Origin: a virus | Taxonomy: Duplodnaviria > Caudoviricetes | Direction: 5' to 3' (one strand) | Length of the DNA: 39,128 nucleotides | Virus record (IMG/VR): IMGVR_UViG_3300038393_001279 | Span: 1 to 39,128 of that record | Shown: one piece after another, positions 23,123-27,701 of the stretch | Numbering within the stretch: the stretch's first letter is position 1 | Layout: every line of letters begins with the position of its first letter | Position numbers and translations under genes: made by a program | The notes under the pieces: model-generated | Told to the model about the DNA's origin: nothing | Databases searched by the model: none | What the model saw: the letters and a program-made list of their open reading frames with translations, nothing else

Positions 23123-23326
23123 TTATGCCGGTTTCGTGGCGTCGAGGGCGGCGCGGACAAAACAGTCTTTCGCCTCGAGCAGCTTGCGCATGCCGGCCGA
23201 TTTCTCGGGACCGTCGGGGAGTTGCGCCTCGAGCTGGTCGGCCAGGTCGCCAATCGGTTTGCTCACGGCCTGGAGGTGGGCCGGGAGGTGGCCGTATGCG
23301 AAAAACTTAATCGTGGTGGTGGGCAT
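23123..23326 (-). CDS. Small conserved phage protein; possible Acb2/Tad1-like helical-hairpin sponge
   Basis: FFAYGHLPAHLQAVSKP...LPDGPEKSAGMRKLLEAKDCFVRAA with an AAGGA RBS. The function is inferred. Confidence 0.6.
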   Translation of the reverse strand: MPTTTIKFFAYGHLPAHLQAVSKPIGDLADQLEAQLPDGPEKSAGMRKLLEAKDCFVRAALDATKPA

Positions 23327-23335
23327 GGTCGTTCC

Positions 23336-24118
23336 TTAAAATGCGGCGATTCGGTCGGCCAGCACGCCGGCCAGCTTTTCCATAAGCTCGAGTTGGTCGG
23401 ACAGTCGCTCCTGCTCCGCCGCCGGCAGGGTGCCGAAAATCTCGCCCTGGATAAACGGGCTCAGGCGGGAAATGCGCTGTACCAGGTCGGCACGTTCGGC
23501 GCACACGCGGTCCTGGAACGTCAGTTCCGGCGCCTCGTGGAATTGCGGCTCCTGGCCGGTGAACACGGATAGCGCGAGCAACAGGCCGTTGGCCATGCCG
23601 CGCATGTATTCGCCCTGGTCGACGGTGCCCAGGGAGGATTGGACGGCCACCAGGTCGCGCAGCTTGCCGACTTTCTCGTCCTCGGTCGCGGCGCGGAACA
23701 GGCGCTCCGCCAGGAGATAGCCCTCGAGTGGCCAAATCTGGTCCACGGCCGCCTTGTACGCGTACTCGCACCCGATTTGCTGGTCGAAATTCGCGGCACT
23801 CACGGGGCCGTTATTCACGCCCACGACGCAAAAGCCGTTGACCAGTTCCAGACGGCACACGGTCGTGCGCGTGCCCTCCAGGTTGGTGTAAGTCTCGTCC
23901 ACGATGATGGACTGAATGTGTTCTTTCGTGATGCGCGGCGCGGCCGGCTTGAGCTCCTCGACGCGCGCCTCGAGCTCGGCGTCGGACAGCGGATCCGCGA
24001 GCGTGGCGCCCTGGTCAACGTCCAGGAACACATGGGCGTTGCCGCCCTCCGTCGGTACGACGTGCGCGGCGCTGGCCAGGGTCGAGGCGATGGCGGCGGC
24101 GATGTTGGTTTTCTGCAT
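23336..24118 (-). CDS. Three-domain putative anti-defence sponge: Gp49/Sf6-gene66 (Acb4-like) + unknown domain + crAss001_48 (Sequestin-like)
   Basis: Start ATG 24118 with a GAGGA RBS, 260 aa. Domain 1: PRIT...I...T.C.L.L.NGF.V.G....VS..NFD..IG...A......IW.LEGYLL. Domain 3: FQDRV..E..DL...I..L..FI....F..L...EQ..L..Q...M......L..RI..F. Confidence 0.75.
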   Translation of the reverse strand: MQKTNIAAAIASTLASAAHVVPTEGGNAHVFLDVDQGATLADPLSDAELEARVEELKPAAPRITKEHIQSIIVDETYTNLEGTRTTVCRLELVNGFCVVGVNNGPVSAANFDQQIGCEYAYKAAVDQIWPLEGYLLAERLFRAATEDEKVGKLRDLVAVQSSLGTVDQGEYMRGMANGLLLALSVFTGQEPQFHEAPELTFQDRVCAERADLVQRISRLSPFIQGEIFGTLPAAEQERLSDQLELMEKLAGVLADRIAAF

Positions 24119-24137
24119 TTCTATGTCCTCTTTCGGG

Positions 24138-26561
24138 TCAGGTTGTAACAGTGTTGAGCAGCGGGGCCATTTGGGCCGCGCTGTAGGCTTTGGCAATCTC
24201 GGCCGGCCCTTGGATCCGGGCGGCCTCGTGGCCAATCTTGACGAATAGCACCGGCTTGCCGCCGTCCGGTGCCACCAGGTTGTTGACGCGGCCGTGTGAG
24301 GCCAGCAATCCGGGGTGCCAGTCGTAGCCGAGGCGGACCAGCATTTCGCGGCGCTTGTTGATCGGGACGGAGCGGGCGCGGCCGTGGTCCTCGAGGAGCT
24401 TTTGCAGGGCCATAGACGAAATCCACCCGCCAGCGAAACCGGGCGCACCCTGCGCGATGGCCTCGAGGATTTCTTGCTCGACGCCGCCCAGGCTGGCCGC
24501 GACGGATTCCTCCGTGCTGGTCGTGACGGGGGCAATGTGCCCGTGCGCCGGGTTGAATTCGTCCGGGATAGGGTAGGTCTGCAAAAATTCGTTGATGATG
24601 GCGTAGCCGCCGCCACGTGCCCACGCGTACAGGCGCGGGAAGTATTGGCCGGACATGCCCCATTCGACCAGATCCTCGGCCGTTTGCTGCGCCGTGAAAA
24701 ACGGTGCGATGCGGCGGTCGTTCTTGCTCTTGCGGTAGCCGTCCTTGTGGTTGCTGTTAATCATGAAATTACAGCACACCTCACGGGAGACTTTTTTCTC
24801 GCCCTTGCCCTGGATCTGTTGCTCCTCGCCGGTAATCATCGGCTTGAGCTCCTCCATTACCTCCTGGCGGCTGTCCGCGACGTAGATGTCCTCCACGCCG
24901 ATGAACACGGTCCCATATTGCCAGTCGTTGAATTTGTCCGCGATGTCGGACGCCTTGGGGAAATACGTGTAGCGCTTGCCGACGGCGAACGCCACGCAGC
25001 GCGTGAGGAACGTTTTGCCGTTGCCCTCCACGCCCTGAATGAACGGCGCCCACTGGAATTTGATTCCCTTGTGCTGGACGATGGCCGCCATGTAGGACAG
25101 CATAATCGTGCGGTCCCGTTGGTCCGGCAGGAGCGCGGCCAGGTGGTTGAGGAATGGCGACACGTCACCTTGCATGCGCGCCGTCTCGACCGGCCACCAG
25201 AGATTGGCCTTTTTCTGGCCGTCGTAGTCGATGATGGCGCCGGGGGTCTTGTCCGGCCGGAAGCACGACGAATCGGCGCGCGGCGAGCGGAACGCCTGCG
25301 ATTGACTGAACGCCTCCCACGGGTCGCGGCTCGAGCGGTTATTGTCGAGGTCCATCATGAACGTGTAGCCGCCGAACATGACGCGGAATTGATCGGGTTT
25401 CAACAGGTAGCCCCCCGGGACCAACACGGCGTGTTTGTCGCACACGTACGAGCACCCATGGAACAGCGTGATTTGCTGCTCCGGGCCCAGGAACGTGGAG
25501 CCGGTCACGAGTTTGGCCATGGGCGCGGCGTCCGTGCTCGAGGAGCTGGCGGCGGGCGTAGGGGCGCTACTCTGGAGCGGCTCGGGGGGCGTGTCCTTTA
25601 AAACCTGGTCGTCCTGCTGCACGGCGACGGCGCCCAGGATGGTGGCGTAGACGTACGACTCGCGCGCCCACTTCTCACGTACCAGGCCGGACTGGAACAT
25701 CAGGCGGCGGATCCGCTCGCAATCCTTGCCGGTCCAGAACGCCAGGTGTTGCGCGAGCGCACGGTCGGCGCGGCTGGCGTCGTACGGGAGCGCGCCGTTA
25801 CCGTCGGGCGGGTACGCCGCGGCCAGGACGTCCACGTCACAGTGCCAGAGGTCCGCGAAGCTGGCCGCGGCGCCGAACGCTGCGCGCGCGCTGGTCGACT
25901 GCATGGCGCGGCGGAGGAGCTGCTCGTCGTCGGTCGGACCGTTCCAGCCGGGCACCGGGCCGGTGGTCCACTCGACGTCCTGGCCGGCGGCCGTCGTCAC
26001 GCGCTTGAGCCATTTTTCCGTGAGGGCGTACAGGCCCGCCGTGTGCTCCGTGGCCACGTCGCCGGTAATGCTCGTGCCGGTCAGGGCCACGAACCGCTTT
26101 TCCGTGTACAGGTCGAAAAGTTTATTCGTGATGTCCTTTTTGCGGCGGTCGGTCGGCGCGGTGCCGGTGCCGAAAAAGTGCAGGCCGCGGCCGGACTGCG
26201 AAATCTCGCACGCGGCGCCAGGCAGCGCGGCGGCCAGTTCCGCAACAATCGGCGTCCAGCGCGGCGGCGAGCCGTCGGCCGGCACCTCGAGGCAGTTGTC
26301 CACGTCGATGAAGAAAAACGGGTCCGCCTCGGTGAACACGAAGCCGACGCAGTAATCAGCGCCCCAGGCCGTGACGATGCGGCACGCCTCCGTGGAGTCC
26401 AGCCAAATGCCGGAGTCGTGGGCGTCGTGCTTTTTGCCCGTGTAGACGTTGAGCGGATATTTGAACGTTTTCCCCGGGTGCTCGGTGTCGGGGACGAGCT
26501 GGCACACGATGAATTGGCGATACCTCGCCATTGCGGCCAGTGCTGGGGGCAGCTGTTGCAT
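24138..26561 (-). CDS. NrS-1-like primase-polymerase fused to an SF3 helicase (DUF5906-like)
   Basis: AEP motifs FIDVD and EISQSGRGLH, helical-bundle motif D.S.AD.AL...LAFWTG.D..RI.RL...SGL.R.KW, and Walker A GVEGNGKT. Confidence 0.9.
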   Translation of the reverse strand: MQQLPPALAAMARYRQFIVCQLVPDTEHPGKTFKYPLNVYTGKKHDAHDSGIWLDSTEACRIVTAWGADYCVGFVFTEADPFFFIDVDNCLEVPADGSPPRWTPIVAELAAALPGAACEISQSGRGLHFFGTGTAPTDRRKKDITNKLFDLYTEKRFVALTGTSITGDVATEHTAGLYALTEKWLKRVTTAAGQDVEWTTGPVPGWNGPTDDEQLLRRAMQSTSARAAFGAAASFADLWHCDVDVLAAAYPPDGNGALPYDASRADRALAQHLAFWTGKDCERIRRLMFQSGLVREKWARESYVYATILGAVAVQQDDQVLKDTPPEPLQSSAPTPAASSSSTDAAPMAKLVTGSTFLGPEQQITLFHGCSYVCDKHAVLVPGGYLLKPDQFRVMFGGYTFMMDLDNNRSSRDPWEAFSQSQAFRSPRADSSCFRPDKTPGAIIDYDGQKKANLWWPVETARMQGDVSPFLNHLAALLPDQRDRTIMLSYMAAIVQHKGIKFQWAPFIQGVEGNGKTFLTRCVAFAVGKRYTYFPKASDIADKFNDWQYGTVFIGVEDIYVADSRQEVMEELKPMITGEEQQIQGKGEKKVSREVCCNFMINSNHKDGYRKSKNDRRIAPFFTAQQTAEDLVEWGMSGQYFPRLYAWARGGGYAIINEFLQTYPIPDEFNPAHGHIAPVTTSTEESVAASLGGVEQEILEAIAQGAPGFAGGWISSMALQKLLEDHGRARSVPINKRREMLVRLGYDWHPGLLASHGRVNNLVAPDGGKPVLFVKIGHEAARIQGPAEIAKAYSAAQMAPLLNTVTT

Positions 26562-26890: not shown

Positions 26891-26924
26891 GTTGATGTTA
26901 GTCAATTCTGACGGACTCGTCAAT
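26891..26924 (-). promoter_or_regulatory. Sigma70-like promoter/operator; inverted copy of 33898-33931
   Basis: TTGACG-N17-TAACAT, containing TGACG-N4-CGTCA and TTGA-N6-TCAA palindromes. 33 of 34 bases match 33898-33931. Confidence 0.8.
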
Positions 26925-27701
26925 CGCTACGCGGCGGCTAACCTCGTGTTCTCGAAGAAACACGTTAAACGCGTAAATCGCCTGCTCGTCCGCCGAGCGC
27001 TCGAACACGGCGGCGCTGTTGTGCGCCTCCACACGGTCGGCTATTACGGCCATTCGTTGCGCCGCGGTCGGCGGGGCGTACATGCCGAATCGGGCGGTTT
27101 GGCTCTGGTTGCGCACGGCGTTGGTGCTATCCGCGCTGGCCAACGGCAAACGCGAAAAGAGGCGGGGGTCGAGCATGCGCAACCCATGGAGCTTGCAAAC
27201 GGGGCGGCCGTGCTCGTCGCATATCGCGTTGAGGGCCTCGCGCATGCGCGCCCACCAAAGGGCGGATCCCGGCGTACGAAAATCGCCGGAGCTCCCAAGC
27301 GCCACCGTGCGCCAGGCGTGCCCGAGTGCGACGAGGCGCTCCACCGGTTCGTGGAGGTGCCACACGGGCACGCCGTCGGCGCGAAGATCCGCCGGCCACT
27401 CCGCGATAAGGGCGTCGTTTTCTTCGGGCGTGCCGCCGATTACGTCGGGGATCAGCGCCCAATCGAAACCCGGGTGCCGGTGCCATTCCCGGACCCATGC
27501 GACATAGCCCGGAACGTCCAGCACGCCGCCTTTGTTCCAGATCGTAAACGCGCCGTTGTCGAGCACGAAGGATTGGCACACCTCCGCGACGACGGCCATG
27601 TCGTCCTGGCGCGGGAACGGCACGAGCGCGTGCCGCCCCGTGAGAAAGCGCGCAACGTCCTGGCGGGATCCGCTCCCAGGGGTTCCGTGGTATGGCTTCA
27701 T
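26898..27701 (-). CDS. TGT-fold DNA guanine transglycosylase (DpdA-like)
   Basis: Motifs in TGT order: LDNGAF (cf. DSGGF), IPDVI, PVWH, ALGSSG, KLHGLRML, SADST. Confidence 0.7.
   Translation of the reverse strand: MKPYHGTPGSGSRQDVARFLTGRHALVPFPRQDDMAVVAEVCQSFVLDNGAFTIWNKGGVLDVPGYVAWVREWHRHPGFDWALIPDVIGGTPEENDALIAEWPADLRADGVPVWHLHEPVERLVALGHAWRTVALGSSGDFRTPGSALWWARMREALNAICDEHGRPVCKLHGLRMLDPRLFSRLPLASADSTNAVRNQSQTARFGMYAPPTAAQRMAVIADRVEAHNSAAVFERSADEQAIYAFNVFLREHEVSRRVAIDESVRID

Follow-up and report, generated by a model that had tools for sequence, protein, structure and literature searches.

A 53-residue domain, here called domain X, lies between an Acb4 and a Sequestin sponge domain within a single 260-residue phage protein and, as judged by profile comparison, belongs to a real, undescribed family that is none of the known sponges. 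We give roughly even credence to the reading that domain X is itself an undescribed homodimeric sponge for a nucleotide alarm, with a ligand that is probably other than those of its two neighbours.

Genomic setting of the host gene

The window (the whole stretch of DNA analysed, 39,128 bases) is a complete viral record with direct terminal repeats; its G+C content is 67% across its length, and its gene content includes terminase, portal, major head and head-closure proteins, primase, helicase, and DNA polymerase. The gene of interest (23336..24118, minus strand) is situated immediately after the primase gene and ahead of a gene for a 67-residue protein. A ribosome-binding site read from the sequence, AGAGGA (24126..24131, minus strand), precedes the ATG at 24118 by 7 nt, and this start agrees with that of a relative in locus L005; an upstream GTG start at 24616 was rejected, as it would make the gene overlap the primase gene. 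Elsewhere in the window, a 267-residue protein encoded at 26898-27701 on the minus strand matched phrog_887 (queuine tRNA-ribosyltransferase-like, E = 2.3e-68); phage proteins of this kind place deazaguanine bases in the DNA, a trait that counters restriction.

From the open reading frame, Pfam, and a full-length structural model, the 260-residue protein consists, in order, of a predicted disordered leader (residues 1-42, 23993..24118, pLDDT <50), an Acb4 domain (PF13876; residues 63-139, 23702..23932, Pfam E = 1.4e-22), domain X (residues 145-197, 23528..23686), and a Sequestin domain (PF21825; residues 200-258, 23345..23521, Pfam E = 1.8e-14), all on the minus strand. The names of the two outer Pfam families follow Tal et al. 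(bioRxiv 10.1101/2025.07.12.664507). The initial annotation had described a middle domain of about 53 residues between two sponge-like domains, and both points were upheld: 23528-23686 translates on the minus strand to 53 residues, of which the sequence quoted in that annotation is the last 50, and Pfam matches nothing between Acb4 and Sequestin. A relative at locus L009 has the same Acb4-X-Sequestin architecture at 69% identity to the window protein.

Fusion of Acb4 to Sequestin has already been published, in gp59 of Pseudomonas phage Ab09 (10.64898/2026.06.04.730250) and in a YH6 fusion (Tal et al., 10.1101/2025.07.12.664507). The outer domains of Ab09 gp59 and their order are identical to those of the window protein; however, gp59 is 147 residues long with abutting domains, whereas the window protein has domain X inserted between them. 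Ab09 gp59 is reported to be a tetramer that binds 1''-3' gcADPR tightly and 3'3'-cGAMP weakly, as well as 2'3'-cAA, and to trigger Panoptes (10.64898/2026.06.04.730250). A close relative of the window protein is present in the Sequestin homologue table of Tal et al., and the accessible part of that report (10.1101/2025.07.12.664507) makes no mention of a middle domain for it. The residues that contact cGAMP in SPO1 Acb4 are partly kept in the window domain: F96, F111, and I115 are identical, K36 is replaced by R84, and E49, Y57, and K81 are not kept; because only some of these contacts are retained, the dinucleotide preference of the window Acb4 may differ from that of SPO1. In the window Sequestin domain, R204, E208, Q242, and R256 align by eye with the SequestinA pocket residues R8, E12, Q47, and R61, which makes binding of 3'cADPR likely.

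Domain X is a self-contained and essentially viral family

Domain X is a self-contained domain, since 60 of the 150 phmmer matches listed are proteins of 95 residues or fewer, in keeping with the stand-alone small phage proteins mentioned in the initial annotation. Searching the 53 residues against 1.84 billion representatives with phmmer returned 324 matches at E ≤ 0.001, each member being a cluster at 50% identity. Of 2,528 candidates, a 9-row profile recovered 663 proteins (26-126 residues), and of 7,994 candidates a 150-row profile recovered 174 (159-2,000 residues); a word-index search with the 53-residue domain alone gave no match, whereas these profile and full HMMER searches succeeded.

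The motif that the initial annotation found striking (YMRGMANGL; the family motif proper, Y171-G178, lies at 23585..23608, minus strand) is conserved far beyond chance in the alignment. Across 266 proteins, which were gathered through the motif itself so that the percentages lean high, G178 is kept in 100%, G174 in 99%, Y171 in 98%, N177 in 97%, G164 in 96%, M172 in 94%, P191 in 92%, and Q160 in 87%. Position 173 is His in 46% and Arg in 35%. Most of the family has N-W at 165-166 and the window lineage has T165-V166, a substitution by which the window copy may differ from the rest of the family. The family has a median net charge of -4 and lacks an invariant Lys or Arg, and the 266 proteins likewise show no invariant His, Asp, or Glu of catalytic type. 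The idea that X is a decayed linker was rejected on its conserved columns and on a pN of 0.14 against a pS of 0.25 in comparison with L009 (few sites).

Among isolated phages, carriers of X include those of Bacillus, Brevundimonas, Sphingomonas, Vibrio, and Octadecabacter. It is a 72-residue stand-alone gene in Octadecabacter phage DB2 (gp53), is fused to MazG-like proteins in Brevundimonas phages and Sphingomonas phage Birtae, and forms the end of a 106-residue protein in a Vibrio phage. A strict motif scan recovered 61 IMG/VR loci and 260 metagenome stretches, and only 8 loci, all metagenome-assembled, from 185,579 prokaryote genomes (GTDB); given 61 viral loci against 8 in prokaryote genomes, the family appears to be essentially viral.

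The C-terminal half of SPO1 gp34.22 is a diverged X, with relatives in 19 Bacillus phage records. The corresponding phrog_23796, of unknown function, was the only PHROGs match for X and a weak one (E = 0.05); the BFVD model of a 124-residue protein superposes on the X model with a TM score of 0.91. Although its C-terminal half resembles X, gp34.22 differs in having an extra N-terminal domain and in lacking N177. We found no description of gp34.22 in a literature search; it is named in the Fig. S2B protein lists of Chang et al. (PMC11722364), most likely a mass-spectrometry list, which suggests that gp34.22 is made during infection.

Comparison with known sponge and anti-defence families

No match to domain X was found in Pfam, NCBIfam, or PADLOC, and nothing under E = 0.8 was found among PDB sequences; the view that X could be assigned to no named anti-defence family, Lockin included, is thus borne out by sequence and profile. 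With hhalign, comparisons to Acb4, Sequestin, Lockin, Tad2, the Acb2/Tad1 hairpin, T4 Acb2, and TadIV-1 gave 0.2-1.3% (several against single-sequence templates), against 67% for a positive control that paired the hairpin with T4 Acb2. Acb4 (PF13876; a dsRBD-like alpha/beta fold) was ruled out by the lack of a Pfam match and an hhalign value of 0.29%, Sequestin (PF21825) likewise at 0.71%, and the Acb2/Tad1 hairpin (PF24729) and Tad2 likewise at 0.23-0.25% with single-sequence templates, Tad1 itself being compared through Pfam and PDB sequences only. The comparison with TadIV-1 (T4 Vs.3), whose pocket is an N-terminal flexible loop, gave 1.3% over 13 columns against one sequence; it gives no hint of relatedness but is of low sensitivity. 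Lockin was ruled out by the lack of a PDB-sequence match, an hhalign value of 0.18%, and the all-helical X model.

Both Lockin and Sequestin nevertheless resemble X in kind. Lockin (PDB 9p8l) is also a small unannotated phage family with a highly conserved motif, but that motif is K45-S-T-K48 and the protein is a mostly beta-sheet hexamer (Tal et al., 10.1101/2025.07.12.664507), whereas X is all-helical. Sequestin, like X, is a short helical-hairpin phage domain, mostly stand-alone and found through sponge fusions, and it forms a homodimer such as is predicted for X; its dimer is antiparallel with Arg/Glu/Gln pockets, whereas X is predicted to pair through parallel second helices on glycines and has no invariant Arg. 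The Acb5 family, marked by R10/W38/H61, cleaves cGAMP (Tal et al., 10.1101/2025.07.12.664507); the X motifs were not found among the Acb5 table rows listed, and no resemblance to Acb5A was seen by eye.

Among the rows listed in the supplements of Tal et al. (10.1101/2025.07.12.664507), the X motif occurred in only two, both in the Sequestin table and both the close relative of the window protein; neither the screen table of that study nor the supplementary files of Hadary et al. (PMC12393519) contain it. An October 2026 review (PMC13712596) lists, in its accessible part, seven sponge families, and X matched none of them by profile or Pfam. Domain X is not described in the accessible portions of that review or of PMC13728456, PMC13232231, PMC13243611, 10.64898/2026.06.04.730250, 10.1101/2024.12.30.630793, 10.64898/2026.07.21.739742, and 10.1101/2022.06.09.495361; our literature and supplement motif searches, which covered open-access text, returned no description of X, and subscription versions could change this result. 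The field moves fast, and X might already have been characterised as an anti-defence family under another name, but its absence from these databases, tables, and reviewed families makes this very improbable.

Predicted structure and dimerization of domain X

An AlphaFold2 model of X built on the 150-row alignment has a helix at positions 2-16, a nine-residue loop, a helix at positions 26-43, and an extended tail, with a mean pLDDT of 97.1. In the full-length model, which has a pTM of 0.38 so that the positions of the domains relative to each other are undefined, X again folds as its own unit with helices at residues 146-160 and 170-187. The proposal that X is a self-contained helix-loop-helix is therefore supported at the level of prediction, as is the proposal that it oligomerises. 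Two modelled copies gave a dimer score of 0.73, against 0.00 for the best of three controls; in calibration, 20 of 30 solved pairs reached the mark used for this score, as did 1 of 23 single chains, and this calibration is roughly applicable here, since our own alignment was used. The dimer runs showed 100% contact agreement with pLDDT ≥ 86, and a homodimer is thus the supported prediction.

In the predicted interface, helix 2 packs in parallel against helix 2 with like residues touching (positions 27, 30, 31, 34, 35, and 38); G174-x3-G178-x3-A182 lies on the two-fold axis, with Y171 against Y171'. Such helix packing would explain the invariance of G174 and G178 (and the identity of A182). The predicted interface also takes in Q160, H/R173, and N177; outside it are the conserved residues of the loop (G164, N165, aromatic 166) and of the tail (P191, aromatic 193). 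N177, Q160, and P191 could be structural. A two-fold X dimer would fit with the tetramer of Acb4 as well as with the hexamer of Lockin. Tandem copies of X occur in 5 of the 266 proteins (P0192, P0262, P0178, P0194, and P0247) and are possible single-chain mimics of the predicted dimer.

Structural searches did not connect X to a characterised protein. Foldseek found no PDB match at E ≤ 0.001, and the top two hits of a BFVD search were evident members of the X family (E = 0.016 and 0.020). A wide VIA-align search had a best Z of 6.2 at the head of a flat list of generic hairpins, with no sponge among the 50 rows listed; this flat list does not show that the fold is new, as a two-helix model cannot discriminate folds. 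The first matches in the ESM Atlas (0.83 and 0.81) were unnamed viral clusters, which are leads only.

Fusion partners and gene neighbourhood

We retrieved 378 distinct X proteins, of which 217 exceed 95 residues, or 216 without the window's own fragment; a known sponge domain (Acb4, Sequestin, or Lockin) is present in 12 of these 216. Most of the sponge-fused proteins share the window lineage, being Acb4-X-Sequestin or Acb4-X with an unnamed domain and carrying Thr at 165. Outside that lineage we found X-Acb4 (P0288), Sequestin-X (L066), and X-Lockin (P0258, E = 3.3e-23 to PDB 9p8l), and Acb4-X in P0160 may be a fifth arrangement. Because the X copies of P0288, L066, and P0258 are closest to members without a sponge and are scattered on the tree, the alignments point to X having become associated with sponges independently at least four times, across three unrelated families. 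On the tree, which is built on 54 columns, has low support, and serves as a cross-check only, 16 of the 382 copies are sponge-fused and fall into 9 groups, against at least 14 for shuffled labels. X is thus found both alone and with sponges other than the pair in the window (Lockin, Acb4 alone, Sequestin alone), a result that leaves the proposal of the initial annotation unrefuted on this point; at locus L020, a Lockin gene is a near neighbour of X.

In the eight Acb4-X-Sequestin proteins, mean identity is 58% in X and 47% and 43% in the two sponges, a comparison biased by the selection of these proteins through X. X is retained where Sequestin has been swapped out (P0125 and P0128). The replacement after X in these two proteins is an unnamed beta-type domain, which we call GDW; it precedes Acb4 or X elsewhere (GDW sites: P0125, P0128, P0146, P0221, P0373, L030, L035, and L070:29489-29767), is also found in 2 of 66 control loci, and is similar by eye to SPO1 gp34.82. 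An unnamed N-terminal domain of about 90 residues before Acb4-X-Sequestin or X-Sequestin makes four-module chains in P0130, P0229, and L079, and two more unnamed small domains are recurrently fused to X (one set being P0287, P0290, P0300, P0331, P0343, and L049, the other P0149, P0303, and P0326).

The profile set least tilted to the window lineage gives a broader picture, for in it only 1 of the 119 long proteins listed is sponge-fused, besides the window's own. The other partners in that listed set are DUF5662 (4), dNMP kinase (3), MazG (2), WDGH (2), TMEM65 (2), dGTP diphosphohydrolase, Lar, Ead/Ea22, DUF551, DUF3310, and ligase, and most of the proteins have no Pfam partner. MazG-like fusions account for 6 of the 61 IMG/VR host ORFs, with X at either end. 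MazG-like proteins with X at the N or C terminus were seen at loci L003, L006, L007, L023, L029, L038, L045, L055, and L062, and a DUF7173 gene comes next after three of these. X thus fuses promiscuously, and among these proteins its partners appear to lean towards sponges and nucleotide-handling enzymes.

Of the 119 X loci that were left after redundancy was removed from 149, 5 had a known sponge gene in the flanks or host ORF, against 0 of 66 Lar-family controls (from 80), an enrichment that is not significant (one-sided P = 0.11; P = 0.26 without two window-lineage loci). This comparison used HMMs for Acb4, Sequestin, Lockin, Tad2, and the Acb2/Tad1 hairpin, with two of the seeds drawn from test loci, and many of the loci are short. 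When 263 neighbour ORFs from 55 IMG/VR loci were compared with Pfam, a single Acb2/Tad1 hairpin was seen and Tad2 was absent. The case for a sponge by guilt through fusion, as made in the initial annotation, therefore stands in that Acb4, Sequestin, and Lockin are all partners of X, and is diluted by their small share of the fusions and by the neighbourhood result.

The same observations could be accounted for if X were a generic small accessory or dimerisation module of phages with no role in immune signalling, which in this protein would brace the Acb4-Sequestin oligomer; we rate this as a real but minority possibility. Promiscuous fusion to whatever small gene adjoins, the position of the motif glycines on the predicted two-fold, the lack of significance in the neighbourhood comparison, the tandem copies, and, in some relatives, the nearly linkerless junction of X helix 1 to the last Acb4 helix are all consistent with such a role. 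However, a pure spacer would not be expected as a common stand-alone gene, Acb4-Sequestin works as a tetramer without X in the accessible account of Ab09 gp59 (10.64898/2026.06.04.730250), and G164, N165, aromatic 166, P191, and aromatic 193 are conserved outside the predicted interface.

The 67-residue neighbour of the fusion gene (23123..23326, minus strand) encodes a helical protein and is kept beside the fusion in a relative (L005:3348-3554). It has no match in Pfam or the PDB, and its likeness to the Acb2/Tad1 hairpin is weak (hhalign 18% over 27 columns); its family is also fused to a Tad1 homologue in a table of Hadary et al. (PMC12393519). We consider it a second candidate sponge.

A possible third sponge specificity in one chain

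In the predicted dimer, parallel packing of the two second helices through G174-x3-G178-x3-A182 brings Y171/Y171', Q160, and H/R173 close to one another, next to the G164-N/T165-W/V166 loops. If domain X is a sponge, this end of the dimer would hold a nucleotide tightly without cutting it, and the host effector that awaits this signal would stay off. The window protein would in that case combine three specificities in one chain, for cyclic dinucleotides (Acb4), 3'cADPR (Sequestin), and a third signal (X). Domain X recurs in fusions with Acb4, Sequestin, and Lockin, the kind of recurrent fusion used for discovery by Tal et al., and it has the published sponge traits of being short, viral, and stand-alone, and homo-oligomeric by model only. 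Sequestin was itself discovered in this way, being the domain most often fused to Tad2 and Acb4 (Tal et al., 10.1101/2025.07.12.664507), a precedent that counts in favour of X as a sponge. The polar and aromatic positions Q160, G164, N165, Y171, H/R173, and N177, shared across diverse phages, would be easier to explain by an invariant small ligand than by a host protein that varies.

Against the sponge reading, sponge fusions are a minority (12/216), the other partners are many, the neighbourhood comparison lends no support, and part of the motif is accounted for by dimer packing. Published sponge pockets are mostly basic (Tal et al., 10.1101/2025.07.12.664507), whereas X has a net charge of -4 and no invariant Lys or Arg; this argument is weak because a net negative charge is also found in the Acb4 and Sequestin domains, and X cannot be told from proven sponges by net charge.

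We consider it unlikely that X instead serves in anti-defence or host takeover by acting on a protein, in the manner of Tad3-Tad8, or as a small nucleotide enzyme like Acb5. Any anti-signalling role would be consistent with sponges and MazG as fusion partners, and there are precedents: Acb5 is an enzyme, though from a sponge-type screen (Tal et al., 10.1101/2025.07.12.664507); Bes1 and Bes2 adjoin Acb4-Sequestin and, in the accessible part of that account, had no measurable signal binding (10.64898/2026.06.04.730250); and Tad proteins block ThsA/ThsB via a protruding conserved loop on a dimer (PMC13728456). Yet the motif is constant across hosts of several phyla, which is hard to reconcile with a protein target, and the absence of an invariant catalytic His, Asp, or Glu speaks against an enzyme.

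As to the ligand of a putative X sponge, the MazG, dNMP kinase, dGTP diphosphohydrolase, and DUF5662 partners hint at a mononucleotide-sized alarm, and because these partners handle (deoxy)mononucleotides, dITP, m6dAMP, or (p)ppGpp could be candidates, as leads only. No result favours cCMP/cUMP or cyclic oligoadenylate, which had been among the signals proposed. None of the seven sponge families is listed in the accessible part of the review as binding dITP, m6dAMP, or (p)ppGpp (PMC13712596), and in Kongming the dITP is made by a phage kinase (PMC13728456). A more specific version, to which we assign quite a low probability, would make X an eighth family of sponges, the first to trap a linear signal of the deoxynucleotide or alarmone type (Kongming's dITP, Metis's m6dAMP, or (p)ppGpp) or else an undiscovered signal; trapping of this kind would explain its fusion to sponges as well as to dNMP kinase, MazG, dGTP diphosphohydrolase, and DUF5662. 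Atd1, a phage MazG-like (p)ppGpp pyrophosphatase, acts in anti-defence by depleting (p)ppGpp (bioRxiv 10.1101/2022.06.09.495361) and, being MazG-like as are the repeated partners of X, is a precedent for such enzymes in this role; X, however, is not a MazG, and X-fused MazG may do ordinary nucleotide housekeeping. SPO1 is restricted by Thoeris systems of types I and VI (2'cADPR and 3'cADPR) despite carrying gp34.22 (PMC13232231), and its 3'3'-cGAMP binder is Acb4, not gp34.22 (10.1101/2024.12.30.630793); both observations speak weakly against a sponge role and narrow the X ligand only weakly, as SPO1 also carries Tad2 and gp34.22 is diverged.

Domain X, which by profile or Pfam matched none of the seven listed sponge families, has hundreds of members, a stand-alone form of 50-70 residues, and a copy in SPO1, and is cheap to test. 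If X is a mere dimer module, guilt by fusion would have a real false-positive rate. If X binds a nucleotide, either a gap in counter-defence would be closed or a new bacterial alarm molecule revealed, and if it is a sponge for a novel signal, purified X could be used as bait for the immune molecule. The three-in-one chain bears on how phages stack counter-defences and also on the design of phages that pass several signalling defences in laboratory strains.
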